Shown piece after piece: positions 1,048-37,981 of a stretch of DNA of 64,000 nt; the stretch's first letter is position 1; each line of letters begins with the position of its first letter. Source of the stretch: Eubacteriales bacterium. Lineage in GTDB: Bacteria; Bacillota; Clostridia; Oscillospirales; CAG-272. The notes beneath the pieces are model-generated. The model worked only from the letters and a program-made list of their open reading frames with translations, searched no databases and had not been told where the DNA came from. The stretch spans positions 4,497-68,496 of the forward strand of contig JAZQFQ010000020.1 of assembly GCA_045539595.1 (NCBI GenBank), read 5' to 3'. A program made the position numbers and the translations under genes.

Positions 1048-1419
1048 ATGGGAAAGTTTGCAGTTAGAAAGACCAACACCGGCTTCAAATTTGATCTGGT
1101 TGCCGGCAACGGCGAGACTATCGCGACCTCTGAGGTATATGCCGCTGAGGCATCCTGCCTGAACGGTATCGCCAGCGTAGTGAAGTGCTCTGCTGCCGCT
1201 GAAGTAGAGGATCTCACCGCAGAAGTTGTAGAGACCAAGAAGCATCCCAAATTTGAAGTGTACGCCGACAAGGCGGGCGAATTCCGTTTCCGTCTGAAGG
1301 CTACCAACGGTCAGGTCATCGCCGTATCCGAAGGATACAAGGCAAAGGCATCCTGCCTGAATGGCATCGAGAGCGTAAAGAAGAACGCCGCTGACGCTGA
1401 AACCGTTAAGGAATACTGA
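1048..1419 (+). CDS. YegP/DUF1508 (UPF0339) protein with two tandem DUF1508 repeats
   Basis: Internal ATG of track ORF 979..1419, preceded by AAGGAG. Two repeats: KFxL(V/K)A.NG(E/Q).IA.SE.Y....(A)SC.NGI.SV. Confidence 0.8.
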   Translation: MGKFAVRKTNTGFKFDLVAGNGETIATSEVYAAEASCLNGIASVVKCSAAAEVEDLTAEVVETKKHPKFEVYADKAGEFRFRLKATNGQVIAVSEGYKAKASCLNGIESVKKNAADAETVKEY

Positions 1420-2822: not shown

Positions 2823-4598
2823 TCACAGCTGCTCGAATTCTTCCAGGGCCGCCTTGAAGGATGCCATGCAGGCCTCGAAGGCGTCGGGCTTGGTCAGATC
2901 CACGCCGGCCAGTTTCAAGAGTTCTACGGGACTGTCGCTGCCGCCGGAGGACAGGAAGCGGAAGTAATCATCCACAGCGGTCTGGCCTTCCTTCAGGATT
3001 CGCTCGGCGATGGACACGGCGGACACGATACCGGTGGCGTACTTATACACATAGAACCGGCGATACAGATGGGGGATCCGCGCCCATTCGTAGGCGATCT
3101 CGGGATCGGACTCCACGGCGGGGCCGTAGTACTTCTTATTCAGCTCCAGATAGGCCTGGCAGAGGGCATCTTTGGTGAGAGGCTGGCCCTTCTCTGCCAT
3201 ATCGTGGGACAGATACTCAAACTCCGCGAACTGGGTCTGGCGGAACAAAGTGCCCTTCAGGGTATCCATATAATAGGAAAGGAGATACTTCTTCAGCTTC
3301 ACGTCGTCCGTGTTTTTCAGCAGATGCTTGAGCAGAAGAACCTCGTTGACGGTGCTGGCCACTTCGGCCACGAAAATCTTGTAGCTGGCCTTCTCGTAGG
3401 GCTGATTCCGCTCGGAGAAGTAGGAGTGCATGGCGTGACCCAGCTCATGGGCTACGGTGAACACATCGCCCGTGGTCTTCTGGTAATTGAGAAGCACGTA
3501 GGGATGCTTCAATCCGAACACACTGATGGAGTAAGCGCCGCTGCGTTTGCCCTCGGTTTCCTCCACGTCGATCCATCCGTTATCGTGGGCCTGCTGCAGA
3601 AGCTGTCCGTACTGCTCACCCAAAGGAGCCAGTCCTTCCTTGACGATGCGGAAGGCCTCGTCGTAATCCACGCGGATCTCCGCATCCTCCACCAGGGAGG
3701 TATAGATATCGTACATATGGAGCGTCTTGACACCCAGGATCTTTTTGCGGTCCTTGAAGTAGCGATGCAGGAGCGGCAGATTCGCGTTCACGCTGTCGAG
3801 GAGGTTCTTGTAAACCTGCACATCCACGTCCTCACCGGCCAGGGCCATCTCCAGGCAGGAGTTGTACTTGCGGGTGCGGGCCAGGAACACGTCCTTATCG
3901 ATATTGCCCACATAGGTGGCGGTGATGGTGTTGATCAGATCCATATAGACCTTATTGAATGCCTTGAATGCGGCGCGGCGGACGCGGCGATCGGGGGAAT
4001 GGAGCATGAGGCCGTAGGTGCCGTGGGTCAGGCGGACCTTTTCACCGTTCACACGGATGGTGGGCAAGGGCAGATCGGCGTTGTTGATCATGGAGAAGAT
4101 ATTCTGGAATCCGCCGAAGATACGGGACTCCTGGGAGAGGAGGGTTTCGATCTCCTCGGAAAGTACGTGGGGCTTGCCTTTGATGATGCCGCGGATGGTA
4201 TAATCATAATCCTTCAGGCGGGGATCGGCGGCCAGCTCCTCCAGTTTCTCCACCGGCAGGGCGGTCAATTCCGGATTGATGAAGGACACGTTCGCGGAGA
4301 ATTTCATCGACAGCATCTGCACGCGGGTTTGGAGAGCATCAAACTCGGACAGGCGGGTATCCTCATCCCGACGCATGAAGGCGTACACGGACAAAAGGCT
4401 CAGATCCTTCACCACCGCGTTGACTTCTTCCATGCAGGCAAGGATGGTTTCGGCATTGTTCAACTTGCCTTTGTAGGCGGAAAAATCCAATTTTCCCTCC
4501 AGGGAGGCATACAGATCATCCCATTCTTTCTGGGAGGCGAAGATATCGTCGGTATTCCATTTCCGGCTGGCGGGAACGTCTTTTCTTTCTTTTGCCAT
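2823..4598 (-). CDS. pepF: Oligoendopeptidase F (M3B metallopeptidase)
   Basis: 591-aa ORF with zinc motif HELGHAMH and PepF-like length and N-terminus (RKWNTDDIF...). AAAGGA RBS upstream. Confidence 0.9.
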   Translation of the reverse strand: MAKERKDVPASRKWNTDDIFASQKEWDDLYASLEGKLDFSAYKGKLNNAETILACMEEVNAVVKDLSLLSVYAFMRRDEDTRLSEFDALQTRVQMLSMKFSANVSFINPELTALPVEKLEELAADPRLKDYDYTIRGIIKGKPHVLSEEIETLLSQESRIFGGFQNIFSMINNADLPLPTIRVNGEKVRLTHGTYGLMLHSPDRRVRRAAFKAFNKVYMDLINTITATYVGNIDKDVFLARTRKYNSCLEMALAGEDVDVQVYKNLLDSVNANLPLLHRYFKDRKKILGVKTLHMYDIYTSLVEDAEIRVDYDEAFRIVKEGLAPLGEQYGQLLQQAHDNGWIDVEETEGKRSGAYSISVFGLKHPYVLLNYQKTTGDVFTVAHELGHAMHSYFSERNQPYEKASYKIFVAEVASTVNEVLLLKHLLKNTDDVKLKKYLLSYYMDTLKGTLFRQTQFAEFEYLSHDMAEKGQPLTKDALCQAYLELNKKYYGPAVESDPEIAYEWARIPHLYRRFYVYKYATGIVSAVSIAERILKEGQTAVDDYFRFLSSGGSDSPVELLKLAGVDLTKPDAFEACMASFKAALEEFEQL

Positions 4599-4676
4599 GG
4601 TGATTCATCCTTTCTTATATATAATTTCATGCACAAATGGGGGTGTCACACTCGTGCCATCCCCATTTCATTTTTA

Positions 4677-5663
4677 TTACAGCGTTGCGGCCATCACCGC
4701 TTTGATGGTATGCATGCGGTTCTCCGCTTCATCAAAGACGATGGACTGCTCGCTCTCAAACACGCCATCGGTGACTTCCATGCAGGTGATGCCGTATTTC
4801 TCGCAGATATCCCGGCCGATCGCCGTATTGGTATCGTGGAACGCAGGCAGGCAGTGCATAAAGCGGCACTGGGGACCGGCGTTGGCCATGATCTCCTCCG
4901 TTACCCGGTAGGGGGTAAGATCAGCAATTCTCTCCTGCCATACGGATGCCGCCTCGCCCATGGACACCCACACATCGGTGTAGATCACGTCCGCGCCCTT
5001 AGTGGCGGCGATGGGATCCTCACTGAACTCCAGCGTGGCGCCGGTTTCTTTTGCAATGGCCTGGCACTGAGCCACCAGATCCGCATTGGGGAAATACTTG
5101 GCGGGGGCACAGGCAACGAAATGCATACCCATCTTGGCGCATCCCACCATGAGGGAATTGCCCATATTGTAGCGGGCGTCGCCCATGTAAACCAGTTTCT
5201 TACCGGCCAGGGGGCCGCAATGCTCACGGATGGTAAGGAAATCCGCCAGGATCTGGGTAGGATGGAACTCGTTGGTCAGGCCGTTCCACACGGGAACGCC
5301 GGCGTAGCGGGCGAGATCCTCCACGATTTCCTGGCCGAAGCCGCGGTACTCGATGCCGTCAAACATACGGCCGAGGACCCGGGCGGTATCGGCGATGCTT
5401 TCCTTTTTGCCGATCTGGGAGCCGGTGGGGCCCAGATACACGGGATGCATACCCAGATCCGCCGCGGCCACTTCAAAGGCACAGCGGGTACGGGTGCTGT
5501 CCTTCTCAAACACCAGGGCGATGGACTTACCCTCGCACAGGCGGTGAGGGATGCCGGCTTTCTTCTGTGCCTTCAATTCGGCGGACAGATCCAGAAGGCC
5601 TGTGATCTCCTCCGGGGTGAAATCCAGCAGTTTCAGAAAATGCTTACCTTTCAATGATATCAT
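4677..5663 (-). CDS. argF: Ornithine carbamoyltransferase
   Basis: Start at [15 protein letters not shown] (cat at 5661-5663). Carbamoyl-phosphate motif STRTR, HPTQ, and ornithine-site HCLPAFH. The anabolic versus catabolic role is not decidable from sequence. Confidence 0.9.
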
Positions 5664-5694
5664 AATTGACTCCGTTGTTGACAAAGTTGGTATT

Positions 5695-6450
5695 TTACAG
5701 TACTTTCGCCAAAAAAGACTGCAGACGCTCGCACTGGGGATTTTCAAAGATTTCCGTAGGAGTTCCCTCCTCGGCAATCACGCCGTCATCCAGGAAGATG
5801 ACGCGGTTGGACACCTCGCGGGCAAAGCCCATCTCGTGGGTAACGACCACCATGGTCATGCCCTCTTTGGCCAGTTCCTTCATAACGTCCAGAACCTCGC
5901 CGACCATCTCGGGGTCGAGAGCGGAGGTGGGTTCGTCGAAGAGCATCACATCCGGCTCCATGCAAAGCGCACGGACGATGGCCACACGCTGTTTCTGGCC
6001 GCCGGACAACTGACTCGGATAACTGTCCGCACGGTCGGACAGACCGACGCGGGCCAGCAGTTCCATGGCTTTGGCTTTTGCCTGCTCCGGGGTGGCTTTC
6101 TTCAGCATGACCGGCGCGCAGGTCAGATTCTCCAGAATGGACATATGAGGGAACAGATTGAACTGCTGGAACACCATGCCCATCTTCTGGCGGTGGAGGT
6201 TCAGATCCACTTTCTTATCGGTCAGATCCGCACCCTCAAAATAGATGCTGCCGCCCGTGGGCTGTTCCAGCAGATTGAGGCAGCGGAGAAAGGTGGATTT
6301 ACCGGAGCCGGAGGCGCCGATAACGCACACCACGTCTCCCTTATGGATATCGATATCGATTCCCTTCAATACGGACACATCGGCAAAATCCTTTTTCAAT
6401 CCGCGCACGCGGATGGTTACTTCGCCGGAAGCATAATTCTTATTTTCCAT
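5695..6450 (-). CDS. Polar amino-acid ABC transporter, ATP-binding subunit (GlnQ-like)
   Basis: Walker [10 protein letters not shown], signature LSGGQKQR, Walker [12 protein letters not shown]. Overlaps the permease stop by 11 nt. Confidence 0.9.
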
Positions 6451-7126
6451 CGCTTCTGCGCAACCTCCTTTCCAGAACGGCCAACAAACGGGTCATCGCC
6501 ACGACCATCACCAGATATACAAGAGCAAGGAGAAGGATGGGGTTCACCGCATCAAACGTTTTGTTTCGGATATTGGTGGCTGCCTTGGTGATATCCACCA
6601 CAGCCACGTAACCGGCAACGGAAGTCTCTTTCAGAAGAGCAATGCACTCATTACCGATGGCGGGCAGAATGTTTTTGATAGCCTGGGGAAGGATGATCTT
6701 GGCCATGGCCTGCCCTTTGGAAAGGCCCAGGCTTCTTGCCGCCTCCATCTGTCCCTTATCCACTGCGTTGATACCGCTGCGGATCAGCTCCGCCATATAG
6801 GCACCGGAATTGATACCGAAAGCCACGATGGCCACCGGCACGCCGTCCTTGACGGAAACGAAAATAATATAAAAGAACACCAGCAAAAGAACTGTAACGG
6901 GAATACCGCGGATCACCGTGGTATACAGATCGCACAGCCAGTTGAAGATGCGGAGCTTCTTATTGCCCTCGCAGAAATACTTGGTAATGGCGATCACCGC
7001 ACCGATGATCACACCGATGATCAAGGCACCCAGCGTGATCAGAAGGGTGTTTCCGAGGCCTTCCACCAGCCACATATAGCGGTTGTCCTCCAGAAAGGTC
7101 TCCTGCAATTTTGCAAACCAATTCAT
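6440..7126 (-). CDS. Polar amino-acid ABC transporter permease (HisM/GlnP-like)
   Basis: Start at MNWFAKLQ (cat at 7124-7126) with AAGGAAG RBS. Multi-TM protein with an EAA-loop-like segment [23 protein letters not shown]. Confidence 0.85.
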
Positions 7127-7244
7127 TATGTAATCTTCCTTAAATGCTTCGTAAAAATCCTCCCAAAAACCGGGGAATAAACCCAAGCAGGCTCCGCGCT
7201 TTCACGCGGAGCCGCCGTGGTATATTATCTTATGTATACCGGAA

Positions 7245-8009
7245 TCAGGGCTTGATGTAGGTCTCGCCGTAGCTGGCAAAGATGCTCTCCATGGTACCGT
7301 CCTCGATCAGTTTCTCAAGGATGGTATCGATCTTCTCTACCAGATCCTCGGAACCGAAAGCAAAGGCAAATGCATAGGGCTCATCGGTCATCTTCTCCTC
7401 CAGGATAACCAGGCCGTCGCCTTCCTGTACCATCTGGATCGCGGTCAGGTTGTCTACAACCCACGCGTCTACCTTGCCGGTGGTCAGAGCAGCCTTTGCA
7501 TCGGCGTTGGCAGCGAAGGCCTGCACAGCGATACCCGCATCGGTACAGCCCTTATCGGCAGTGGTACCGGTCTGAACGGATACAGTCTTGTCGGCCAGAT
7601 CCGCCTTACCCTGTATGGTACTGCCCTCTTTTACAACGATAACCTGTGCAGCGTTGTAATAAGGTGTGGTGAACAGCATGTTCTTCTGACGGTCCGCGTC
7701 CACAGTGATACCGGACATACCGCAGTCGTACTTAGCGGACTGCACACCCAGCAGAACAGAATCGAAGTCCATCTGCACGATATCCAGCTGAACGCCCAGT
7801 TCCTCGCAGATCAACTTCAGAACGTCCACTTCAATACCGACAACCTCGCCGCCCTCCAGGCTCTCAAAGGGAGGGAAGTCAGGGCTGGTAGCCACAACGA
7901 GTTTGCCTGCCGCCTCTACGTCAGCCAGGGTTTTGCCCTTGGCACCGCAGCCTGCCAGGCACAGGGACAGCATAAGAGCTGCCATCAAAAATGCAATAAT
8001 CTTTTTCAT
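7245..8009 (-). CDS. Amino-acid ABC transporter substrate-binding lipoprotein
   Basis: Signal peptide with lipobox LSLCLAGC. Type-3 SBP-like body (GFDVD-type motif IEVDVLKLI...). Confidence 0.85.
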   Translation of the reverse strand: MKKIIAFLMAALMLSLCLAGCGAKGKTLADVEAAGKLVVATSPDFPPFESLEGGEVVGIEVDVLKLICEELGVQLDIVQMDFDSVLLGVQSAKYDCGMSGITVDADRQKNMLFTTPYYNAAQVIVVKEGSTIQGKADLADKTVSVQTGTTADKGCTDAGIAVQAFAANADAKAALTTGKVDAWVVDNLTAIQMVQEGDGLVILEEKMTDEPYAFAFAFGSEDLVEKIDTILEKLIEDGTMESIFASYGETYIKP

Positions 8010-8096
8010 GATACAATATCCTTTCCCAATGTAACAAATACAAAATCTTGCGCAATCCGGAGGAAAATCTCCGGTGTTTCATTCTTTACGGATGAA

Positions 8097-8125
8097 ATTA
8101 TACATCAGTTGTAAGCAAATGTCAA
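8097..8125 (-). promoter_or_regulatory. Consensus SigA promoter of the ABC-argF operon
   Basis: Minus strand reads TTGACA (8125-8120), 17 nt, TATAAT (8102-8097). About 85-nt leader before ATG 8009. Confidence 0.75.
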
Positions 8126-8380
8126 TAGATTTTTGAATATTTTTTCAATTTTTTCTGTATAATTATCAATCTGTCTTCCAACCAATCCCGCGTTCTGCAC
8201 ACCGTTTCCCGCCTTGGCCGTATCTTTATGGATCCGGCGCGTCCCACTCCTCCGCCCTTTTTTGATTTAAAGAGACAAAAAGTGCTGGGACAGCCCCGCG
8301 GGAAATGGTGCTTTTGCCATGGTTCTGCCTCAGTTGAGAAAATATTCACTCCCGCTGCATAAACATCCAACCAATATCTC

Positions 8381-9004
8381 TTATCGGATCCGGCTGACAA
8401 ATGCCACCGCCAGTCCCAGGATACGGATCTCCTCCCCGGCATCGGGGGTCAGAATGATCGGTTTATAGGCGGGATTCTCCGCCTGCAGAATCAGATTTCG
8501 CCCATCCCGGTACACCCGCTTCAGGGTGGCCTCCTGACCGATCAGCACGGCGGCGATCTGTCCGTCATCCACCGTTTCCTGCCGCCGGACATACACCAGA
8601 TCTCCCTCCAGAATCCGGGCACCGATCATGCTGTCGCCGCGGCACCGCAGGCAGAAATCCGCCGTGATATCCAGGGGCACCGCCACCATCTCCTCCGCCA
8701 TTTCCGCCGCCAGGATCGGATCGCCGCAGGCGATATCCCCCAGCAGGGGTACCCGGTACGTCCGGGGGATCGGATGGATTTTTCTGCCCTCGCCGTACTC
8801 ATCCGGGGTAGAGATGCGCCCGGTCAGGTAATCCACGCTGACGTGAAATCCGTCGGCGATCCGGTTCAGCATATGTATATCGGGATTTCGCTTGCCGCTC
8901 TCCCAATTGCCCACGGCACCCACGGACACCTGCAGCGCCCGGGCCAATTCGGTCTGGGTGATCCCTTCCCGGCGCCTTAATTCTTTTAAACGATCCTTCA
9001 GCAT
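8381..9004 (-). CDS. XRE-HTH / S24-peptidase autocleavable repressor (phage CI-like, LexA-fold C-terminal domain)
   Basis: N-terminal Cro/C1 HTH (GITQTELARALQVSVGAVGNWESGKRNP). Putative Cys-Gly cleavage site in DIACGDPILA. Catalytic Ser in RGDSM and Lys in TLKRVY. It is not the winged-helix LexA type. Confidence 0.85.
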   Translation of the reverse strand: MLKDRLKELRRREGITQTELARALQVSVGAVGNWESGKRNPDIHMLNRIADGFHVSVDYLTGRISTPDEYGEGRKIHPIPRTYRVPLLGDIACGDPILAAEMAEEMVAVPLDITADFCLRCRGDSMIGARILEGDLVYVRRQETVDDGQIAAVLIGQEATLKRVYRDGRNLILQAENPAYKPIILTPDAGEEIRILGLAVAFVSRIR

Positions 9005-9024
9005 ATTCTTTCACCTCGCGCTCC

Positions 9025-9053
9025 ATTATATCACATTCTGTGAGAATTTGCAA
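9025..9053 (-). promoter_or_regulatory. Consensus promoter of the repressor gene with an operator palindrome in its spacer
   Basis: Minus strand reads TTGCAA (9053-9048, itself palindromic), 17 nt, TATAAT (9030-9025). The spacer contains the perfect 13-bp palindrome ATTCTGTGAGAAT (9035-9047). GAGGTGA RBS before ATG 9004. Confidence 0.75.
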
Positions 9054-9119
9054 GAGGGATTCTCACAACGAGGGAAATATATTTGTATATCCGCTCCGTC
9101 CATGGTATGCTGTTCTCAC
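9035..9119. promoter_or_regulatory. Operator half-site set (heptamer TTCTCAC/GTGAGAA, three copies) in the divergent control region
   Basis: GTGAGAA at 9040-9046, TTCTCAC at 9060-9066 and TTCTCAC at 9113-9119. TGTGAGAAT (9039-9047) and ATTCTCACA (9059-9067) form a 9-bp inverted repeat spaced by 11 nt. Confidence 0.6.
9083..9111 (+). promoter_or_regulatory. Candidate promoter of the fibre-lysis transcription unit
   Basis: TTGTAT 9083-9088, 17 nt, TATGCT 9106-9111 with upstream TGG (extended -10 like). It is followed immediately by the third TTCTCAC heptamer. Confidence 0.45.
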
Positions 9120-9201
9120 GCGGCGAAAGATACCAGGCATCATCCACCCGTCACAAAATCGATCGCCGCGAATTTCCGTTTGGAAAGAAAGGAACTCTTA
9201 T

Positions 9202-12200
9202 ATGAAAATGATAGAAAAGAATCACAGCATACTTCGCATCGGAAAAACCGGAGAGAACGCGTTCCGCACGTTTTCCTTTGATGTGAGCGATTGGGTGGCG
9301 GAGTATCCCCGGGGGGAGATCACCGGCGTCTATCGCCGGCCGGATGATGCTGTATATCCGGTGAAAATCCATGTAAAAAAAGGCACAGCCCACTGGACCG
9401 TCACCGCCACGGATTTGGCCATCGCCGGCAGCGGGGAAATGGAATTGCGGATCACAGACGGTGACGTGATCGGAAAATCCATGCGCTTCCCGTGTATCGT
9501 CAGCGAAGCCCTGTGCGCGGGCGAGGAACCGCCGGCTCCGGCCAGGGACTGGATCACGGAAGTCATGCACGATGCCCGAGAAGCTGCCGAGGCGGCCACC
9601 ATGGCAAAAAACGAGCTGACAGCGGCAGCAGAACGGGGAGATTTTGACGGTGATGCCGGTCCCCAAGGCCCACAGGGACCGAAGGGCGATAAGGGTGACA
9701 AAGGCGATCCGGGAGAGGACGGCAAAAACGGCAAGGATTACATCTTAACCGACGAAGACAAATCCGAGATTGCCGCCGCGGCGGCGGATTTGGTGGAGGT
9801 GCCGGCCTCGCCGAAGGATTACGGCGCTATCGGATTGGGCGCAACGGATGACACGGCGGCATTCAAGCAGGCGCTGGCGGAAAACCGCATCGTACGCGTT
9901 CCCGGCGGCCGATACGTGCTCTCGGACACGCTGGTGGTGCGGGAAAACTGCTGTCTGGAACTGTCCCAGGACACGGTGCTGGAGTTTGTGAGTGAGGAAA
10001 AGAACGCCATCACGCTGCTCCGCGCGGCCCATCTGAAGGGCAACCACGCGACGATCACTGTGCCGTACACCTTCTCGGCGAACGTAATCCACTGCGACAC
10101 GGGAGAGGATGAAGCGGCGCTGGGTGTTGATGCCACAGACGATGAGGCTATGAAAGCCGCCAACAACACCGCCGTTCCGCCGTTTGTCAAGTGGGATCCC
10201 CAGTGGAAGATGACCCGCTATGTGACGGATGTGAACATCTGCAAGCCGGACGACCGGGGATTCCACTATTCCAAGGACGGCGACTGCTTCGGCACGGCGA
10301 TCTATCTCCATTGCGATGCGGCGGATTACGTATCCTACATGTGGGGCGTGAGCATGAGCGGTGTCCGCATTGCGGGCGGATTTGCATACGGTATCCGAGC
10401 CCACAACATCGGGGACGCATGGAATCACGATATGCGGATCGAGGCGTTGATCGACGCCTGCAAGGTGGGCGTGTCCATGGAAAACTGCCACTATGCCCGA
10501 CTGGCCGTCACCATTCAGCCGCGGCGGGCCTACAGCGATTCCGAGGTATACAAGCCCTATGCGGAGCACGGCATCCTGCTCAAAGACTGCCGGGGCATCG
10601 ATCTGTCCGGCTCCCGCGTATGGGACTGGAACGCTGAAACCACCCTGTGGGCGGAGGGCAACTACTATCAGCACATCGCCCTGCTGGGCGAGTGCCGCGG
10701 ATTGATTCTGGATGACTTTTTGTACCACGAGCAGCCGTCCATCGACATCCGCCGCCTGATCTACACCGACACGCCCAGCAATCTGGAGAACATGACGATC
10801 CTGCAGGAGCCCATTGACCGATGGTTTAAGACCAAAAACGGGGAGGCGTACTTCCACGACGGATACCGTGACCGCAAGCTGGTTTCCCAGGAGGAAATGG
10901 ATGCCCACTTCGGCACGGATTTTGTGAAGGGCTTCACCGATGTGCTGGCAAGTGCGGAGGACACGGACGGCACGATCCTGAACGGAGTGGGATACAAGAT
11001 CGGCGCGCGCCTGCACGAAAGCGGCACGGTGACCGAATCCCCCTATTACGGATACACGGGATTCATCCCCTGTGCGAAGGGCTCCACCATTTACGCCCAG
11101 GATCTGACGTTTGATGTGGGCGATCAATTCTGTAAGGTGATCTTCTACGATGCGGACAAGAACTTTGTGCGGCACATCAACCGAAGCAACATCGTGGGCG
11201 GAAGCCAGTATTACACCGCCTACCGATCCACCGAGGGCGGCTTTGCGCTTACCGTCAACAGCATATCCGACAACAACGATGTGGCCTATGCCCGCTTCAC
11301 CTTCTACAAAACCGCCTTTGGTGAGAATCCCATGATGGCGGTGGATGAGGAAATCCAGTACACCGTGGAGGGATACCTGGCCGACAATGTGAAAGTGAAG
11401 GCAAAGAACGTCATCGGACTGCCCGATGGCGGAAGCGGAGCCCAATCCGATTGGAGTGCCGCGGAGGGCGAGCCGGGGCATGTATTGAGCCGCACCCACT
11501 ACGAGGATGCGGACGGAACGGTACACAAGCTGGACAACAAATTCATCGATGCGGAATGGATGGCGACCATGGTGGCGGAGGGCGAGGAGGAGGAAATCCT
11601 GCCCGAGCGCACCATCTCTTTCACATCGAAGGCCGCCATGGTGGCGGGCGATTCCTACAAGCTGCTGGAGGGCAGCCGATACACCGTGTACTGGAACGGG
11701 ACAGCCTACGCCTGCACGGCAGCTCTGGCATCCAGCGGCGACATGGTGCTGGGCAATGGGTACTATCACATGACCACCATGCAGAACACCGGCGAGCCGT
11801 TCTGCTTCACGGAAAGCGGCGGCAGCGGATATGTGAAAAAGAGTACCGCCACCGCCGAAACCTTTACGGTGCGGATCGTGAAGCTTCCCGATCTGGTGCC
11901 GAACAAGCTTCCCGCTGAGTTTTTGCCGGATGGTATCGGCGGCAATGCCAACATCGACGTAACCGCAGAAGTAGGACAGACCATCGTGGTGAAAGCCGTG
12001 GACGAAAACGGCAAACCGACGGCATGGGAGAGCGCAGACTATCAGGAAAGAACGCATTGGACATTTTCCGGCGGCGGGCTTGTCCTTGACGGTCAGACGG
12101 TCACTTTCGGAAGTGATGGAATGGGTGCGATTTCGGGCACGTTGGACATTGAAGCGGGAAAAACGTATACCGTAATATGGGACGGCGCGGAGTATATCTG

Positions 12201-12768
12201 CGATTGCAAGACCGTCTATTACAGCGGAATGGCTGTTGTTTACATCGGTAATCCTGCTGTTGTGGGACTGGATAACAACGGTTTGCCGTTTGTAATCGGT
12301 AAGGTATTGGCAAATGGTTATACAATGGCCGCTTGCTTGCAGCCGAACACAACGCATTCGGTGGGTATTCTTTCGGCAACTGTCAACAAAATCCCTGAGA
12401 GGTATATGGGTGACAATGAATTTGTCCTTCACTTTGAGGGCGATCCCGACTCGGACGGTGGTTTATCCCTTAAAGAAACGGCGGATGAAATCGTGGCGGC
12501 TATCGAATCTGGAAAAAGATTACGCGGCGAACTTTATAGCCTGAATGGGGGCGAAAACCGTGCAACCATGAGTGATTGTACCTGTTTTACCCTGCCTGCC
12601 GAAGGTGCTGTAATTATCACGCTTTCTATCGGTACTTTGCAGTGGAGAGGATACTCATTCGCCATTGACATTGGACTCTCAAAAGCCCCAGACGGGACAT
12701 GCCTCATAACGGATCTTTCAACAGCCCGCTTTGAGAATGCGAGATGGTATGATCACATGACAACCTGA
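9202..12768 (+). CDS. Phage tail-fibre / receptor-binding protein with collagen-like stalk and pectate-lyase-3 (beta-helix) depolymerase-like domain, 1188 aa
   Basis: Start at MKMIEKNHSILRIGKTGENAFRTFSFDV (ATG 9202) inside track ORF 9040..12768. The N-terminus resembles BppU-type baseplate/fibre anchors. Also 10 Gly-X-Y triplets, DYGAIGLGATDDTAAFKQALAENRIVRVPGGRYV typical of pectate_lyase_3, and repeated C-terminal modules. No signal peptide. Confidence 0.75.
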   Translation: MKMIEKNHSILRIGKTGENAFRTFSFDVSDWVAEYPRGEITGVYRRPDDAVYPVKIHVKKGTAHWTVTATDLAIAGSGEMELRITDGDVIGKSMRFPCIVSEALCAGEEPPAPARDWITEVMHDAREAAEAATMAKNELTAAAERGDFDGDAGPQGPQGPKGDKGDKGDPGEDGKNGKDYILTDEDKSEIAAAAADLVEVPASPKDYGAIGLGATDDTAAFKQALAENRIVRVPGGRYVLSDTLVVRENCCLELSQDTVLEFVSEEKNAITLLRAAHLKGNHATITVPYTFSANVIHCDTGEDEAALGVDATDDEAMKAANNTAVPPFVKWDPQWKMTRYVTDVNICKPDDRGFHYSKDGDCFGTAIYLHCDAADYVSYMWGVSMSGVRIAGGFAYGIRAHNIGDAWNHDMRIEALIDACKVGVSMENCHYARLAVTIQPRRAYSDSEVYKPYAEHGILLKDCRGIDLSGSRVWDWNAETTLWAEGNYYQHIALLGECRGLILDDFLYHEQPSIDIRRLIYTDTPSNLENMTILQEPIDRWFKTKNGEAYFHDGYRDRKLVSQEEMDAHFGTDFVKGFTDVLASAEDTDGTILNGVGYKIGARLHESGTVTESPYYGYTGFIPCAKGSTIYAQDLTFDVGDQFCKVIFYDADKNFVRHINRSNIVGGSQYYTAYRSTEGGFALTVNSISDNNDVAYARFTFYKTAFGENPMMAVDEEIQYTVEGYLADNVKVKAKNVIGLPDGGSGAQSDWSAAEGEPGHVLSRTHYEDADGTVHKLDNKFIDAEWMATMVAEGEEEEILPERTISFTSKAAMVAGDSYKLLEGSRYTVYWNGTAYACTAALASSGDMVLGNGYYHMTTMQNTGEPFCFTESGGSGYVKKSTATAETFTVRIVKLPDLVPNKLPAEFLPDGIGGNANIDVTAEVGQTIVVKAVDENGKPTAWESADYQERTHWTFSGGGLVLDGQTVTFGSDGMGAISGTLDIEAGKTYTVIWDGAEYICDCKTVYYSGMAVVYIGNPAVVGLDNNGLPFVIGKVLANGYTMAACLQPNTTHSVGILSATVNKIPERYMGDNEFVLHFEGDPDSDGGLSLKETADEIVAAIESGKRLRGELYSLNGGENRATMSDCTCFTLPAEGAVIITLSIGTLQWRGYSFAIDIGLSKAPDGTCLITDLSTARFENARWYDHMTT
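9649..9738 (+). repeat. Collagen-like Gly-X-Y x10 coding repeat
   Basis: GDA GPQ GPQ GPK GDK GDK GDP GED GKN GKD, in frame with the fibre gene. Confidence 0.95.
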
Positions 12769-12798
12769 CGAACGCAGAGCCATCGAAAGGAGCAACAC

Positions 12799-13128
12799 AT
12801 GAATGAAATCGCATCAAAAATCCTCAGCGTGATTCTGTCGGCGGTGGCGTCGGGTGCCATCTCCGGCGTGGCGGTGTGGCTGAGGATGCGCAAAAAGAAG
12901 GACAGCGCCGTGGCGGACGGAGTGCAGTGCCTTCTCCGAGAGAAGATCATCGAAAAGCACGCCAAGTACGTGGAGGAAAAGCACTACTGCCCCATCTACG
13001 CCAAGGAATCCATCCGCAAGGCATACGCCGCCTATCACGCTCTGGGCGGCAATGACGTGGCCACGTCGCTGTATAAGGAAATGATGGCCCTCCACACGGA
13101 GCCGCCGGAGAAGGAGGAGAGTGCATGA
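12799..13128 (+). CDS. Phage-associated membrane-anchored protein (N-terminal TM helix plus soluble domain), function unknown
   Basis: AAAGGAG RBS. TM segment ILSVILSAVASGAISGVAVWL followed by RMRKKK. Its stop overlaps the next start (ATGA at 13125-13128). Confidence 0.65.
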   Translation: MNEIASKILSVILSAVASGAISGVAVWLRMRKKKDSAVADGVQCLLREKIIEKHAKYVEEKHYCPIYAKESIRKAYAAYHALGGNDVATSLYKEMMALHTEPPEKEESA

Positions 13129-13766
13129 ACATTACATCCGTATTGCCCATTCTGACGGAGGGGACAACCCTGCACGTCACCTCTCCCTTCGGATGGCGCA
13201 CCGATCCCGTGACGGGGGAGGGCGGCCAGGGGCACAAGGGCATCGACGTGACGCTGTGGCGGGGGTGGAGTGCCTTGTCCGGCATCGGTGCCGCCTGGGA
13301 TGGTGTGGTGATCGGTGTCCGGGACGGAGTGGAGGGATTCGACAAAAACCGCTCCGCCGGCAACCGGGTGACCATCGATCACGGGGACGGGGTGGTGACC
13401 AAATATTTCCACCTGGCAAACGGAAGTATTCCGGTGCAGCTGGGCGATCACGTCACCGCCGGGCAGATGATCGGACAAATGGGATCCACCGGGTATTCTA
13501 CCGGGGCGCACCTGCATTTCCAGTTGGAGATCGGCGGCGAACCCGTGGATCCTCTGCCGTTCCTTCTCGGGGAGGAGGGCGTCCCGGAGCAGCCCACCGA
13601 CGACATGGACAACACCCCCGCCGCCTGGGCGGAGGAGGCGGTGTCCTGGGCGGTGGAAAACGGGATCCTGTACGGGGACGAGCACGGCAACTACCGGCTC
13701 CACGAAAACTGCACCCGGGAGATGATGCTGGTGTTCCTCTACCGGGCGGTGGGAGGCGGCGCATGA
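13125..13766 (+). CDS. M23 (LytM-type) peptidoglycan endopeptidase endolysin with one C-terminal SLH-like module
   Basis: HxxxD motif HKGID and HxH motif GAHLHFQ. C-terminal AAWAEEAVSWAVENGILYGDEHGNYRLHENCTREMMLVFLYRA matches the S-layer-homology consensus. AAGGAGGAGA RBS. Confidence 0.85.
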   Translation: MNITSVLPILTEGTTLHVTSPFGWRTDPVTGEGGQGHKGIDVTLWRGWSALSGIGAAWDGVVIGVRDGVEGFDKNRSAGNRVTIDHGDGVVTKYFHLANGSIPVQLGDHVTAGQMIGQMGSTGYSTGAHLHFQLEIGGEPVDPLPFLLGEEGVPEQPTDDMDNTPAAWAEEAVSWAVENGILYGDEHGNYRLHENCTREMMLVFLYRAVGGGA

Positions 13767-14023
13767 AGAAGATGGAGTTTTCCAAGATCATCGTGGCCGC
13801 CACGATCCTGCTGGTATATCCGGCGGTGATCCTGCTGTCCTGGCGGGTGATCGAGTTGGCGGAGATGGCCGTTACCCTGAAATTCACGGGTGCGCTGCCG
13901 TACCTGACCGCCATTATCACCCCCGCCTGGGCGGCCTTCGCCACCATCCTTGGCTTCTATTTCAACAAGGCCAAGGGCGAGAACAAAGAGAAGATCCGCA
14001 AATCGGGAAAAATTGATTATTAA
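13763..14023 (+). CDS. Holin (two TM helices, basic C-terminal tail), 86 aa
   Basis: ATGA overlap with the endolysin stop. MKKMEFSKIIVAATILLVYPAVILLSW ... LPYLTAIITPAWAAFATILGFYF, then KAKGENKEKIRKSGK. It is the C-terminal part of spurious track ORF 13121..14023. Confidence 0.7.
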   Translation: MKKMEFSKIIVAATILLVYPAVILLSWRVIELAEMAVTLKFTGALPYLTAIITPAWAAFATILGFYFNKAKGENKEKIRKSGKIDY

Positions 14024-14036
14024 GAAAGAGGTACAT

Positions 14037-14327
14037 ATGGAAAGGCTGAAACAGAAACTGTCCTCCCGCAAGCTGTGGGCGGCCATCATCGCGGTGATCG
14101 TGGTGCTGGCGGTCACAATCCTGGGGGAGGAATTGACCCCCGAAACCGTCGCCACGCTGGAATGCGTGGTGGGCGCCGCCATGGCCTACATCTTCGGCGA
14201 GGGCGCCGTGGATGTGGCCCGCGTCATCGCCGAGGCGGTGAAGAAAGCGTATGCGGCGGCGTATGAGGTGGTCGGGGAGGACACCGAAACGGGCGAGGAA
14301 GACTGGCTTTTGTATAAAAAAGAATAA
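14037..14327 (+). CDS. Small two-TM membrane protein with acidic tail (second holin/antiholin-like)
   Basis: Internal ATG of track ORF 13950..14327, preceded by AAGAGG. TM segments LWAAIIAVIVVLAVTILG and VVGAAMAYIFGEGAV. Last gene before the terminator. Confidence 0.6.
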   Translation: MERLKQKLSSRKLWAAIIAVIVVLAVTILGEELTPETVATLECVVGAAMAYIFGEGAVDVARVIAEAVKKAYAAAYEVVGEDTETGEEDWLLYKKE

Positions 14328-14334
14328 CGACACC

Positions 14335-14376
14335 GGGCGGGAGGGCAATATTGCCCTGCCGCTTGCTTCCTTTTTT
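14335..14376 (+). terminator. Probable terminator of the fibre-lysis unit
   Basis: Imperfect stem around the palindrome GGGCAATATTGCCC (14343-14356), extended by GCGG/CCGC. A T6 run at 14371-14376 is somewhat distal. Confidence 0.5.
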
Positions 14377-14386
14377 ATAAAATACC

Positions 14387-14415
14387 TTGACAAAAACCAC
14401 GCTCTGTGCTACAAT
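14387..14415 (+). promoter_or_regulatory. Consensus SigA promoter of ileS
   Basis: TTGACA 14387-14392, 17 nt, TACAAT 14410-14415. Confidence 0.8.
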
Positions 14416-14419
14416 TTCC

Positions 14420-14652
14420 TTGTCTATAAAGGCGCAGAGGAAGAGAGTACGTGCGGCGCAAAAAAGGCACAGCGAGTCGGGGGCGGTGAAAGCCCGGCAT
14501 CTTTTTTCGCACGGAAGATCACTTCGGAGCCGCAGGGGTGAAAGCAGTAGCTCCTGCCGGATACCGTCCGTTACCACGGTCGCATATGTTCGTATGCAGG
14601 TGGTATAGCGAAGCGCGCCTTCGTCCTGTGGGACGGGGGATTTTTATTTTTC
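14420..14652 (+). promoter_or_regulatory. T-box riboswitch leader, isoleucine specifier (AUC)
   Basis: Conserved elements in order:
- AGAGAGTA (AGTA-I region).
- AGCGA bulge.
- GGTGAAAG distal loop.
- Specifier context GAAG-AUC-A-CUUCGG, with AUC at 14518-14520 followed by A.
- F-box CCGTTA at 14568-14573.
- T-box core AGGTGGTATAGCG at 14598-14610.
- Terminator CCUUCGUCC/GGACGGGGG (14618-14639) followed by a U-run. Confidence 0.85.
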
Positions 14653-14676
14653 GATTATTATTGTAAGGAGTGCGTT

Positions 14677-17600
14677 ATGTACAAGAAAGTCCCAACGAAT
14701 CTGGATTTCGTAAGCCGTGAACAAGAAACCCTTGCGTTCTGGAACGAAAATCACATTTTCGAGAAGTCCCTGGAGCACCGCAAGGGCGGCCGGGGTTACA
14801 CATTCTATGACGGTCCTCCCACCGCCAACGGCAAGCCCCACATCGGTCACGTGCTGACCCGTGTCACCAAGGACATGATTCCCCGCTACCGCTGCATGAA
14901 GGGTTACGATGTGCCCCGCAAGGCGGGCTGGGACACCCACGGTCTGCCGGTAGAGCTGGAAGTGGAGAAGCTTCTTGGCCTGGACGGCAAGGAGCAGATC
15001 GAAACCTACGGTATCGATCCCTTCATCACCAAGTGTAAGGAGAGCGTCTGGAAATACAAGGGCATGTGGGAGGATTTCTCCGGCACCGTCGGTTTCTGGG
15101 CGGATATGGATCATCCCTATGTTACCTATCACAACGACTATATTGAATCCGAGTGGTGGGCACTGAAGAAGATCTGGGAGAAGGATCTGCTCTATAAGGG
15201 CTTCAAGATCGTTCCCTACTGCCCCCGCTGCGGAACCCCTCTGTCCACTCACGAGGTGGCCCAGGGCTACAAGGCGGTCAAGGAGCGCTCTGCCATCGCC
15301 CGCTTCAAGGTAAAGGAGGAGGACGCCTACATCCTGGCATGGACAACCACTCCCTGGACTCTTCCCTCAAACGTTGCTCTCTGCGTAAATCCCGACGAGA
15401 TCTACGTGAAGGTAAAGGCCGCCGACGGCTACACCTACTATCTGGCTAAGGCACTGGCGGATACCGTTCTCGGTTCTTTGAAAACCGAGGATACCCCCGC
15501 TTACGAGATCCTCGCTGAGTACAAGGGTACCGATCTGGAATACAAGGAATATGAGCCTTTGTTCGAGTGCGCTATCCCCGTTTGCGAGAAGCAGCACAAG
15601 AAGGCGCACTATGTGACCTGCGACAACTACGTTACCATGTCCGACGGTACCGGTGTGGTTCACATCGCGCCCGCCTTCGGTGCGGATGACGCCAATGTGG
15701 GCCGCAAATACGATCTGCCCTTCGTGCAGTTCGTGGACGCCAAGGGTGACATGACCGAGGAGACTCCCTTCGCCGGCGTATTTGTCAAGAAGGCGGATCC
15801 TATGGTGCTCACCGATCTGGACAAGCGCGGTCTGCTCTTCGACGCGCCCAAGTTCGAGCATGAGTATCCCTTCTGCTGGCGCTGTGACACTCCCCTGATC
15901 TACTACGCAAGAGAATCCTGGTTCATCAAGATGACCGCGGTTCGTGAGGATCTGATCCGCAACAACAACACCATCAACTGGATCCCCGAATCCATCGGCA
16001 AGGGCCGCTTCGGCGACTGGCTGGAGAATGTACAGGATTGGGGTATCAGCCGTAACCGCTATTGGGGCACGCCTCTGAACATCTGGGAATGCTCCTGCGG
16101 TCACCGCCACGCCATCGGCTCCATCGCCGAACTCAAGGAAATGGCCATCGAGTGCCCGGAGGAGATCGAACTCCACCGCCCCTACGTGGATGCCGTAAAA
16201 CTGAAGTGTCCCGAGTGCGGCGGCGAGATGACGCGCGTGCCCGAGGTCATCGACTGCTGGTTCGACTCCGGTGCCATGCCCTTCGCACAGCATCACTATC
16301 CCTTTGAAAATCACGAGGCATTTGAGGCACAGTTCCCCGCCGACTTCATCTCCGAGGCAGTGGACCAGACCCGCGGTTGGTTCTATTCCCTGCTCGCCAT
16401 CTCTACCCTGCTCTTCAACCGTGCGCCCTTCAAGAACGTCATCGTTCTCGGCCACGTGCAGGATGAAAACGGACAGAAGATGTCCAAGTCCAAGGGCAAC
16501 GCGGTGGATCCCTTCGATGCTCTTTCCACCTACGGTGCCGACGCGATCCGCTGGTACTTCTACACCAACTCCGCGCCCTGGCTGCCCAACCGCTTCTACG
16601 GCAAGGCCGTGGTGGAAGGTCAGCGCAAGTTCATGGGCACTTTGTGGAACACCTACGCGTTCTGGGTACTGTACGCGGACATCGATTCCTTCGATCCCAC
16701 CAAGTACAACCTGAAGGACTGCGCCCTGACCGTGATGGATCGCTTCATTCTGTCCCGTCTGAACACCACCGTGGCGGAGACCGACGATCATCTGGCGAAC
16801 TACCGTATCCCCGAGGCAGCCAAGTCTCTCTCCACCTTCGTGGATGAGCTGTCCAACTGGTATGTGCGCCGCTGCCGTGAGCGTTTCTGGGGCAAGGATA
16901 TGACGGAGGACAAGATTGCCGCGTTCATGACGCTGTACACCTGTCTGGTCACCATCGCCAAGGCATCCGCCCCCATGATCCCCTTCATGGCCGAGGATAT
17001 CTATCAGAATCTGGTGCGCACCGTGGACGTAAATGCTCCCGAGAGCATCCATCTGTGCGATTATCCCGAATCTGACGCTTCCTACATCGACCGCCAGCTG
17101 GAGACCGACATGGACTTCGTTCTGCGTGTGGTTGTTCTGGGCCGCAGCGCCCGCAACGGCTCCAACATCAAGAACCGTCAGCCTCTGTCCGATATGTACG
17201 TGAAGTGCGAGCGGGAGATCAGCGACTATTATCGCCAGATCGTTGAGGAAGAATTGAACATCAAGCACGTGGAATTTGTGGCCGATGTATCCCCCTTCTC
17301 CTCTTACAGCTTCAAGCCCCAGCTGAAGACCGTAGGTCCCAAGTACGGCAAGCTGCTGGGCAAGATCCGCACCGCTCTTACCGAATTGGACGGCAACGCC
17401 GCCAAAGCCGAGTTGGATGCAAACGGCTCCCTGAAGTTTGACTTCGACGGGGAGGAAGTGATCCTCACCGAAGCGGATCTGCTCATCGAGATCCAGCAGA
17501 AGGAAGGCTACTTCTCCGCCGCAGAGCGTGACATCGTGATTGCTTTGAACACCACCCTGACGGATGCGCTGATTGAGGAAGGTTTCGTAAGAGAGATCAT

Positions 17601-17820
17601 CTCCAAGATCCAGACCATGCGTAAGGATGCGGACTTCAACGTAACCGATCACATCCGCGTAGGCATCACGGGAAGCGAAAAGCTTCTGGCCATCGCCGCG
17701 CGTGGCCGTGATGAGATCGCCGGTGCGGTTCTGGCCGATGCATTCGATTGCACCGACGGCATCGCCAAGGATTGGAATATCAACGGCGAGGACGTAACCA
17801 TCACCGTAGCGAAGATCTGA
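14677..17820 (+). CDS. ileS: Isoleucine--tRNA ligase, type 2 (IleRS2-like)
   Basis: 1047 aa. YTFYDGPPTANGKPHIGH (HIGH region), KMSKSKGN, and no C-terminal CxxC zinc-finger tail. AAGGAG RBS. Confidence 0.95.
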   Translation: MYKKVPTNLDFVSREQETLAFWNENHIFEKSLEHRKGGRGYTFYDGPPTANGKPHIGHVLTRVTKDMIPRYRCMKGYDVPRKAGWDTHGLPVELEVEKLLGLDGKEQIETYGIDPFITKCKESVWKYKGMWEDFSGTVGFWADMDHPYVTYHNDYIESEWWALKKIWEKDLLYKGFKIVPYCPRCGTPLSTHEVAQGYKAVKERSAIARFKVKEEDAYILAWTTTPWTLPSNVALCVNPDEIYVKVKAADGYTYYLAKALADTVLGSLKTEDTPAYEILAEYKGTDLEYKEYEPLFECAIPVCEKQHKKAHYVTCDNYVTMSDGTGVVHIAPAFGADDANVGRKYDLPFVQFVDAKGDMTEETPFAGVFVKKADPMVLTDLDKRGLLFDAPKFEHEYPFCWRCDTPLIYYARESWFIKMTAVREDLIRNNNTINWIPESIGKGRFGDWLENVQDWGISRNRYWGTPLNIWECSCGHRHAIGSIAELKEMAIECPEEIELHRPYVDAVKLKCPECGGEMTRVPEVIDCWFDSGAMPFAQHHYPFENHEAFEAQFPADFISEAVDQTRGWFYSLLAISTLLFNRAPFKNVIVLGHVQDENGQKMSKSKGNAVDPFDALSTYGADAIRWYFYTNSAPWLPNRFYGKAVVEGQRKFMGTLWNTYAFWVLYADIDSFDPTKYNLKDCALTVMDRFILSRLNTTVAETDDHLANYRIPEAAKSLSTFVDELSNWYVRRCRERFWGKDMTEDKIAAFMTLYTCLVTIAKASAPMIPFMAEDIYQNLVRTVDVNAPESIHLCDYPESDASYIDRQLETDMDFVLRVVVLGRSARNGSNIKNRQPLSDMYVKCEREISDYYRQIVEEELNIKHVEFVADVSPFSSYSFKPQLKTVGPKYGKLLGKIRTALTELDGNAAKAELDANGSLKFDFDGEEVILTEADLLIEIQQKEGYFSAAERDIVIALNTTLTDALIEEGFVREIISKIQTMRKDADFNVTDHIRVGITGSEKLLAIAARGRDEIAGAVLADAFDCTDGIAKDWNINGEDVTITVAKI

Positions 17821-36724: not shown

Positions 36725-37105
36725 ATGGATTTCATGGATAAGATGAGTGAATGGGCGCAGAAGATTTCCGACAAGACCAACGAAGTGGTGGAAATCGGCA
36801 AACTGCACGCCAGCAATTTCAGCAAAAACGAAAAGGCAAACGAACTGAAAAAACAGATCGGTGAGATCTGCTTCAGCAAGTACCGGGCCGGAGACGAGCT
36901 CGATCCGGAGATTGAGAATCTTTGCGCCGAGATCAAGAAACTCAAAGGACAGATCGCAGAAAACGAGCGAACCATCCGCCGCATGAAGGAAACCGCCAAC
37001 GGCACCGTAGATATGGCGGCGGCGGGATTCTGTCCCTATTGCGGTGCGGATCTGGCCAAGGATTCCAGATTCTGTGCCCGGTGCGGCAAGGAGATTGTAC
37101 GGTAA
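36725..37105 (+). CDS. Coiled-coil protein with a C-terminal zinc ribbon
   Basis: Start MDFMDKM (ATG 36725) 7 nt after GGAGGA, inside track ORF 36710..37105. C-terminal CPYCGADL...CARCG. Confidence 0.7.
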   Translation: MDFMDKMSEWAQKISDKTNEVVEIGKLHASNFSKNEKANELKKQIGEICFSKYRAGDELDPEIENLCAEIKKLKGQIAENERTIRRMKETANGTVDMAAAGFCPYCGADLAKDSRFCARCGKEIVR

Positions 37106-37121
37106 CAAAAAGAAGATGATT

Positions 37122-37160
37122 TATGCCAAGTACCCGTAAGGATACTTGGCATAACCATTT
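37122..37160 (+). terminator. Hairpin terminator after the zinc-ribbon gene
   Basis: TATGCCAAGTA (37122-37132) pairs with TACTTGGCATA (37143-37153), 11 bp. The following T tract is weak (ACCATTTTAT). Confidence 0.55.
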
Positions 37161-37946: not shown

Positions 37947-37981
37947 TATCCTTTAGAGTATAACCCTTATGGCATCTCCTT

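Follow-up and report, generated by a model that had tools for sequence, protein, structure and literature searches.

What holds a phage-type repressor, a tail fibre and a complete lysis cassette together between two housekeeping loci, with no virion, replication or integration genes detected near them? The question is posed by a six-gene island (8381-14327) in the window analysed here, the whole stretch of 64,000 nucleotides (nt) at positions 4,497 to 68,496 of contig JAZQFQ010000020.1 (Eubacteriales bacterium, assembly GCA_045539595.1). The island lies between an amino-acid ATP-binding cassette (ABC) operon and ileS. It comprises a CI-type repressor gene divergent from a packed operon that encodes, in this order, a fibre of 1188 amino acids (aa), the small protein p109, an M23/SLH endolysin and two small membrane proteins (Table 1). 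An initial annotation, made from the DNA letters alone, had listed these parts, and all were recovered where it had placed them using Pfam, PHROG and open reading frames (ORFs). It had offered two readings, (a) the decayed end of a prophage and (b) a retained, inducible unit that releases the fibre. Our verdict, based on sequence comparison, is that the island is probably a retained, rewired defective prophage that serves as a hub for the exchange of fibre and lysis genes. We assign a probability of roughly 0.6 to the following account: in a small clade of uncultured Oscillospiraceae of the gut (Faecousia relatives), a defective prophage of which six genes are left has become fixed between the ABC operon and ileS, with an inducible lysis/fibre mechanism.

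Look-up of the exact p109 protein led to L046 (logan:SRR25542685_92571), a metagenomic contig of a temperate myovirus. From fibre residue 203 to p96, the last gene of the operon, the island is collinear with positions 3792-8257 of this contig over 4,466 contiguous nt at 95.7% identity (blastn), and fibre residues 203-1188 are 95.6% identical. The prophage origin proposed under (a) is thereby borne out. L046 encodes baseplate J, gp48, a tail fibre, a 1036-aa fibre, p109, M23, holin and p98, followed on the other strand by an integrase, SHOCT and DUF4236 proteins and an S24 repressor. The exact p109 protein also occurs in a second temperate myovirus contig (L049), in further chromosomal copies, and in podovirus-like contigs (L045, L050, L054) resembling L001, which has terminase, portal and major head protein genes. 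The order fibre-p109-M23-holin is found in phages L029, L045, L050, L054 and L001, and a 95-kb phage contig carries the full fibre-p109-M23-holin-p101 order. Fibre homologues are located at the right end of complete phages and prophages, before the lysis genes. Origin by truncation of a temperate-phage right arm (distal fibre plus four-gene lysis cassette) is well supported by these alignments. A complete prophage at this locus in relatives, which the initial annotation had named as the sign of simple truncation, was not seen, although the collinear phage exists.

The fibre gene is a mosaic. Positions 9730-11914, covering the beta-helix, are 95% identical to the podovirus-like contig L001; the counterpart of positions 11037-12539, covering the C-terminal modules, is another phage gene, in L002 (95% identity). 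The N-terminal anchor (N-anchor) is 58% related to a 235-aa protein of myovirus L041, encoded downstream of sheath, tube and baseplate genes of a contractile tail, and this homology begins only at the ribosome-binding site. Collinearity with L046 and the mosaic fibre together indicate that a truncated phage right arm was joined to a repressor of another immunity type. At the other end, homology to L046 stops 24 nt before the p96 stop codon and the last eight codons of p96 differ; thus, the right junction appears to be eroded. The p96 3' end has 13 nt in common with the attP region of L046, a match set aside as too short and A-rich for interpretation. A terminator had been proposed to end the operon; the hairpin is present, but it belongs to the host flank shared with another species.

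Within the species complex of the window, chromosomal and phage lysis alleles interleave and are equally constrained. The holins of podovirus-like L045 and chromosomal L047 differ by a synonymous divergence (dS) of only 0.065, below that of any chromosome-chromosome pair. Exchange of the fibre body and lysis cassette with both myovirus and podovirus-like phages is evident from such alignments, and exchange between phages and defective prophages has been described for E. coli (PMC3945230). Equally evident is exchange of the whole island between lineages by recombination in the flanks: L047 combines a flank like that of L013 (92%) with an island 97-100% identical to that of the window. Two other interpretations were abandoned. 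L047 was considered as a breakpoint at the island edge, but the alignment shows a recombination tract that extends into the promoter and 5' end of the gene for the substrate-binding protein (SBP) of the ABC operon, hence ordinary flank recombination. Strictly vertical inheritance of the lysis cassette was suggested by dS values like those of the flanks and by saturated dS against phages L029 and L033; it was rejected once closer phages and interleaved alleles were found.

The junction between repressor and fibre was identified beside the SBP gene, at the identical site, in 17 other assemblies (L004-L009, L011, L042, L047, L048, L051, L012, L013 and L037-L040), which fall into at least three lineages of species rank. 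The assemblies include the GTDB representatives of two further species (SBP 85-89% identical). Contigs that reach far enough (L004, L037, L047) have ileS on the other side, and all sufficiently long contigs with the exact SBP protein carry the repressor. Metagenome-assembled genomes of Faecousia, whose SBP is 77% identical, have argGH upstream instead and lack the island. The synteny comparison of the interval between ABC operon and ileS that the initial annotation proposed thus returned a unit conserved without a prophage. The same assemblies bear on the suspicion of a faulty join, by which phage sequence would have ended up in a bacterial contig. The lysis cassette is a frequent place for contigs to end (L001, L012, L013, L006, L007), which indicates a sequence repeated within metagenomes and could invite such an error. 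An artefact is nevertheless hardly credible, as both junctions were recovered in 17 other assemblies, from different assemblers and independent samples, with contigs of 35 kb and 43 kb reaching across both flanks.

No stops or frameshifts were found in any allele from the 17 assemblies. The ratio of nonsynonymous to synonymous divergence (dN/dS) is in general 0-0.3, with 0.10-0.28 for M23 over all comparisons; between lineages it is 0.12-0.17 for M23, 0.08-0.12 for p109, 0.11-0.20 for the holin, 0.04-0.12 for the helix-turn-helix (HTH) part of the repressor and 0.15-0.38 for the N-anchor; the flanking SBP gene gives 0.07-0.13. Across five lineages p109 shows 0 nonsynonymous and 7-19 synonymous differences. 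The dN/dS comparison suggested for fibre and lysis genes therefore gave values well below 1, at an orthologous site in at least three lineages, and simple decay finds no support, so that reading (b), the retained unit, gains ground. Tail-fibre genes are enriched in incomplete prophages, whereas lysis and release genes are normally lost first (PMC7744054), which makes the complete lysis cassette an unexpected survivor. Alleles of the N-anchor and repressor have dS of 0.87 within one species and 1.5-2.3 between lineages, versus 0.6-0.9 in the flanks, and thus appear older than the species. Within one species, polymorphism is far higher in the lysis region than in the left flank. Seven fibre architectures occur at the locus (in aa: 1188; 1197; 910+172; 1587; 607; 235+334+88+139; and 235+188+141). 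Taken together, these comparisons give good support for the view that an intact, rewired fibre-lysis operon under repressor control has been retained over a long time.

The repressor bears on the regulatory side of this reading. It matches HTH_3 (1.8e-15), Peptidase_S24 (2.7e-26) and PHROG_4 'transcriptional repressor' (2.9e-44). In alignment, Cys93-Gly94 corresponds to the LexA cleavage site, and Ser125 (in a GDSM motif) and Lys162 are present. The window allele thus has the HTH, S24 domain, Ser/Lys dyad and Ala/Cys-Gly site of LexA/CI-type autocleaving repressors; the initial annotation had called it an autocleavable XRE-HTH/S24 repressor. The LexA equivalog model was not matched. Homologues in 171 GenBank phage records reach at most 41% identity; the protein resembles CI repressors of many Firmicute phages, and no close homologue was found in GenBank phages or IMG/VR. 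In PADLOC it gave only generic HTH-domain matches, and the other five proteins gave none.

Between the divergent genes we predict a palindromic operator that overlaps the repressor promoter. It occurs once in the 64 kb even when 3 mismatches are allowed (expected 0.02), and of 11 copies of GTGAGAA in the window three lie within 80 nt. Operator and promoters are conserved across lineages in aligned alleles; the -10 and -35 elements of the repressor promoter are unchanged in four alleles from three lineages, and the TTGT and TGnTAT positions of the candidate operon promoter are conserved. In IMG/VR the operator pattern was found in two unrelated contigs only, without homologous proteins. No Firmicute LexA box was identified in the island. 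Between the operon promoter and the fibre start is a leader hairpin (-22.2 kcal/mol, z -2.1) whose stem is retained by RNAalifold, with two pairs changed on both sides in a compensatory manner. The hairpin is found in all island lineages; its loop motif (CCACCYGTCACA) is invariant in three lineages and is not present upstream of the homologous gene in myovirus L041. The hairpin may be an attenuator or a binding site. Overall, the head of the island (repressor, operator, leader and BppU-like N-terminus) is without close phage counterpart in our searches, in which phage sampling is incomplete, and it is still under constraint.

The BppU-like anchor is fused to the fibre and, with repressor, operator and leader, makes up an island-specific left end that places late genes directly under the immunity repressor. 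In the mechanism we propose, a repressor dimer on the operator would shut both divergent promoters. DNA damage (RecA*) would lead to self-cleavage at Cys93-Gly94, or an antirepressor from a superinfecting phage might have the same effect. The derepressed operon would then yield its five products (fibre, p109, M23/SLH endolysin and the two holin-like proteins). Cell lysis would free the signal-less fibre, either as such or attached, through the BppU-like domain, to the baseplates of a phage that is co-induced or infecting. SOS-triggered fibre release would be plausible, and export of the fibre is one of several options. We infer a host-level function, whose benefit may lie in immunity conferred by the repressor, in regulated lysis, or in activity or donation of the fibre.

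Several observations weigh against this picture. The eroded 3' end of p96 and the missing integrase are remnant-like features. The interleaving of phage and island lysis alleles means that they form one pool, so that low dN/dS may reflect gene conversion and selection that acts, at least in part, in phages, rather than a benefit to the host. In one lineage (L012 3422-3913; L037 9319-9810) the repressor is 163 aa long: the 44 residues surrounding the cleavage site are missing, and the catalytic Lys is replaced by Arg. This form, found in four samples, should be non-inducible by RecA, and SOS induction therefore cannot be universal. Judged by consensus, the candidate operon promoter is weak, and the consensus scan did not report it, so its assignment is tentative, and the leader hairpin could be an attenuator that needs a phage factor. 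No empty site between SBP gene and ileS was seen, in a search that was not exhaustive, and the host genome was seen only as the 64-kb window. For reading (b), the interleaved alleles, the non-cleavable repressor of one lineage and the ordinary lysis cassette described below all counsel caution.

Much of this would also be expected of a functionless remnant, kept intact-looking by repeated overwriting, through homologous recombination, from phages with near-identical right arms, the host gaining nothing or at most repressor immunity. The 4.5-kb match to L046 at 95.7%, the low holin dS between L045 and L047, the polymorphic lysis region, the eroded right junction and the non-cleavable repressor are all compatible with it. 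Recombination of phages with defective prophages is known (PMC3945230), and fibre genes are the ones enriched in incomplete prophages (PMC7744054). Even so, we regard this account as unlikely, if the least unlikely of the alternatives. The island has kept its site in lineages that have diverged in the flanks by dS 0.6-0.9, a span over which neutral DNA should have been lost to bacterial deletion bias. For repressor, operator, leader and N-anchor our searches gave no close phage source, yet dN/dS is 0.04-0.38. Finally, not one broken allele was found among the 17 assemblies, and release genes are normally the first to be lost (PMC7744054).

The fibre itself offers clues to what might be released. 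It has no hydrophobic N-terminus or signal peptide and has exactly 10 G-X-Y collagen triplets at residues 150-179, as first described. A pectate-lyase-3-like segment had been proposed. The Pfam match (Pect-lyase_RHGA_epim) falls under threshold (25 versus 27 bits), but the AlphaFold2 (AF2) model has a very confident beta-helix at residues ~205-735, for which the top fold matches in PDB are phage tailspike depolymerases. Residues D475 and E536 do not vary among 80 aligned sequences, of which 75 extend across the beta-helix. The BppU-like N-terminus likewise stands by fold only. The model is a beta-sandwich of moderate confidence (pLDDT 71) whose top matches are TP901-1 BppU chains (4v96, E 2e-5), then NF5 and 80alpha baseplates. 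Residues 1-145 have no Pfam match (BppU_N included), and hhalign against the BppU_N-bearing P0011 gave a probability of 0.2. The C-terminal modules, previously described as repeated, are only weakly self-similar (25-28% identity). A tblastn search of GenBank phages with the fibre gave no match, and a sequence search of PDB matched the collagen part only. For the N-anchor allele, no close homologue was found in GenBank phages or IMG/VR, and a scan of JGI metagenomes gave two short contigs only. The N-anchor domain family is large (6,737 cluster representatives) and always N-terminal on variable fibres. In some fibre alleles, chromosomal as well as phage, a CotH kinase-like domain (PF08757) forms an unusual C-terminal module (L047 3043-7806; L001 10001-14554; L050 4988-9871).

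These features could be taken to indicate dedicated release of a free polysaccharide-depolymerase fibre by the holin and endopeptidase, as a bacteriocin-like agent or a public good that might, for example, strip a surface glycan receptor from neighbours. The depolymerase-type beta-helix with its invariant acidic residues, the missing signal peptide and a regulatory logic like that of SOS-controlled bacteriocins are in line with this idea, and the seven fibre architectures and ancient N-anchor alleles look like diversifying or balancing selection on specificity. Tailspikes encoded in a genome can target the surface glycan of the carrier itself (PMC3303846). On the other hand, a free enzyme would have no need of the baseplate-docking domain that is kept here, the lysis genes, 91-97% identical to those of active phages, suggest no specialized secretion device, and exchange with phages explains fibre diversity equally well. 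A depolymerase alone does not kill, and we know of no killing mechanism for a fibre alone. We consider such dedicated release improbable.

Retention of the docking domain raises a further possibility, that the fibres are supplied in trans. They might belong to a split tailocin or prophage under one repressor, or be loaded onto baseplates of infecting L041-type myoviruses, thereby retargeting or poisoning the progeny as a form of decoy defence. The predicted BppU baseplate fold, the location of its relative after contractile-tail baseplate genes in L041, the size and consistent N-terminal position of the anchor family, and constraint on the N-anchor in every island allele while the distal fibre swaps all point this way. 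However, retention of the anchor may mean no more than that it provides a recombination arm or the translation start. In the 64-kb window we identified neither tail genes nor another instance of the operator, the known clusters of tailocins are contiguous, and PADLOC gave nothing beyond generic HTH matches. Supply in trans is thus quite improbable, more so than release of a free enzyme. Only slightly better placed than the latter, and still doubtful, is an elaborate version in which the island is a selected, tail-less module of fibre plus suicide. DNA damage or phage attack would cause self-lysis and free a baseplate-dockable depolymerase fibre; this would strip the phage receptor from kin, or load onto, retarget or poison the tails of a co-replicating phage, and fibre alleles would be kept by frequency-dependent selection.

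The nature of the lysis genes bears on all of these alternatives to the retained defective prophage. The two ATGA start/stop overlaps noted earlier are real (13125-13128 and 13763-13766). So are the transmembrane (TM) anchor of p109 and the SLH module of the endopeptidase. In p109, which is identical in myovirus, podovirus-like phages and chromosomal copies, there are conserved Cys and His residues C-terminal to the anchor. In M23 the motifs HxxxD (H37/D41) and HxH (H129/H131) are intact, and PHROG endolysin families are matched. The 86-aa protein, which had been called a two-TM holin, follows the endolysin in phages L029, L045, L046 and L054, but its PHROG matches are to families of unknown function only; the single holin-family match in the operon, a weak one (phrog_9987, 6e-5), is to p96. 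Scans of IMG/VR with M23, p109, the N-anchor alignment and the repressor gave distant relatives or none. As the genes are 91-97% identical to those of active phages, they appear to form an ordinary phage lysis cassette and not a diverged secretion device. There is a small variable site inside the cassette, the holin-p96 spacer, of 138 nt in L006 and 13 nt in the window. Also present in L004, between the holin and p96 homologues (3620-3922), is an extra 100-aa Tad2-like (anti-Thoeris) gene (PF11195, 2.8e-20); this anti-defence gene is a phage trait and is noted as a caution.

The phages that share in the pool of fibre and lysis genes have features of their own. In L046 the SHOCT-domain and DUF4236 proteins lie between integrase and repressor in the lysogeny module (8516-11726). 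Podovirus-like members encode giant proteins of 3,000-4,700 aa beside fibre genes, either ART-PolyVal or SNF2-helicase polyvalent proteins (L002 8281-14218; L045 8325-14140; L025 1-9917).

ORFs checked in both flanks of the island are housekeeping genes, and the G+C content of the island is like that of its surroundings (~0.57 versus ~0.56 for the window), as had been judged by eye. No tail tube, sheath, tape-measure or baseplate genes were found within 8010-14676. Homologues of ORFs from 11 phage loci were not found elsewhere in the window; scans against family libraries covered ORFs from the ABC operon to ~32 kb, and 37235-37819. No tRNA gene or flanking att-like direct repeat was found around the island. 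A stretch of 185 nt that lies between the SBP promoter and the stop codon of the repressor gene is bracketed by a 15-nt inverted repeat (8134-8148 / 8334-8348; 93% complementary). It lacks conservation across lineages and may represent a small insertion or a residue of the left prophage end. The T-box leader of ileS scores 84.7 bits (E 4e-19), under the Rfam gathering score of 93, and so would be missed at default thresholds. Further along is a gene for a 375-aa protein (29221-30348) with an XRE HTH at the N-terminus and a long C-terminal part without Pfam match. A 194-aa SMI1/KNR4 (SUKH) immunity-type protein (37235-37819) is encoded in an AT-rich patch (37001-38000; GC 0.36, the window being otherwise ~57% GC) and may be an orphan immunity gene of a polymorphic-toxin system.

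Table 1. Coordinates of the island, its predicted regulatory elements and its neighbours (window numbering; residues where marked aa).
Feature	Position	Strand	Remarks
Amino-acid ABC operon	ATPase 5695-6450; permease; SBP 7245-8009	-	left neighbour of island
CI-type repressor, 207 aa	8381-9004	-	XRE HTH and S24 autopeptidase domain
Repressor promoter	9025-9053	-	TTGCAA-17-TATAAT, TG upstream; overlaps operator; consensus scan
Palindromic operator (predicted)	9039-9067		TGTGAGAAT-N11-ATTCTCACA; third half-site TTCTCAC at 9113-9119
Candidate operon promoter	9083-9111	+	TTGTAT-17-TGgTATGCT; extended -10; read by eye
Leader hairpin	9119-9170	+	stem 9119-9126 / 9163-9170; loop motif CCACCCGTCACA at 9144-9155
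Mosaic tail fibre/tailspike, 1188 aa	9202-12768	+	
Fibre domains	aa 1-145; 112-144; 150-179; ~205-735		BppU-like anchor; helix; collagen; beta-helix
Fibre C-terminal part	aa 746-1112; 1113-1188		two immunoglobulin-like modules; tip
Segment collinear with L046	9838-14303	+	
p109, 109 aa	12799-13128	+	one N-terminal TM anchor; phrog_4105; precedes endolysin in phages
M23 metalloendopeptidase endolysin with C-terminal SLH module	13125-13766	+	Pfam 4e-23 (M23), 2e-6 (SLH); no signal peptide
86-aa membrane protein, putative holin	13763-14023	+	one strong and one weaker hydrophobic segment
p96, 96-aa membrane protein, holin-like	14037-14327	+	TM segment, acidic tail; start ATG 14037
Terminator hairpin	14334-14365	+	-24.3 kcal/mol; part of host flank common to lineage L037
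ileS promoter	14387-14415		followed by T-box leader
ileS T-box leader	14426-14631		
ileS	14677-17820		right neighbour of island

Should the operon prove to be under selection, no smaller phage-derived unit of regulated lysis plus a specificity protein would be known; it would be intermediate between cryptic prophages and tailocins, in abundant uncultured gut Clostridia. Read conservatively, it is still a clear case, outside E. coli, of a natural chromosomal depot through which phage morphotypes (myovirus and podovirus-like) and related hosts trade receptor-binding and lysis modules. Either way, the locus bears on the evolution of host range in gut phages and on annotation of prophage remnants in metagenome-assembled genomes.

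Among known systems, L046 and related phages (L049, L045, L050, L054, L001) are the closest. They share fibre residues 203-1188, p109, M23/SLH, holin and p96 in the same order at 91-97% nucleotide identity. L046 differs in having baseplate and tail genes upstream, an integrase and a different S24 repressor (28% identity) downstream, and a short N-terminus where the island fibre has the BppU-like anchor. The island, in turn, lacks virion, integration and early genes, and its repressor abuts the fibre gene. Hallmarks of phage satellites (PICI and P4-like elements: their own integrase, replication or packaging-redirection genes, and att sites) are not seen in the island.

Holin-dependent export of the type 10 secretion kind (Serratia ChiWXYZ, C. 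difficile TcdE/TcdL, Salmonella Typhi TtsA) is similar in that holin-like proteins and a wall hydrolase are encoded beside a large signal-less cargo. Type 10 systems have diverged, often non-lytic components dedicated to one cargo. The cassette of the island is an ordinary one with 91-97% identity to those of active phages, which argues for ordinary lysis.

Defective prophages provide a better parallel. Examples in E. coli K-12 include the DLP12 lysis cassette and the tail-fibre genes of Rac, Qin and e14, and 'domesticated' defective prophages in general are reportedly the subject of work by Bobay et al. in PNAS in 2014. Like such elements, the island is collinear with a functional phage, and virion, replication and excision genes were not found at it. 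As in the cryptic prophages of E. coli K-12, phage-derived genes are vertically retained at one site under purifying selection and recombine with infecting phages (PMC3945230). The island differs in being a single regulated operon in which an immunity repressor faces late genes, in having kept the complete lysis cassette, and in the many fibre alleles at one locus across species.

Tailocins (R/F pyocins, PBSX, diffocin, monocin) are also chromosomal, non-replicating and located between housekeeping genes, with an S24-type SOS-sensitive repressor on top (PrtR in pyocins), a specificity fibre and a lysis cassette. The island genes include the stress-responsive repressor, fibre and lysis cassette, without capsid or replication genes, but the cluster has no sheath, tube, tape-measure or baseplate genes. 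We consider the island best filed as a domesticated or grounded defective prophage, one without tail genes and with a tailocin-like regulatory logic.

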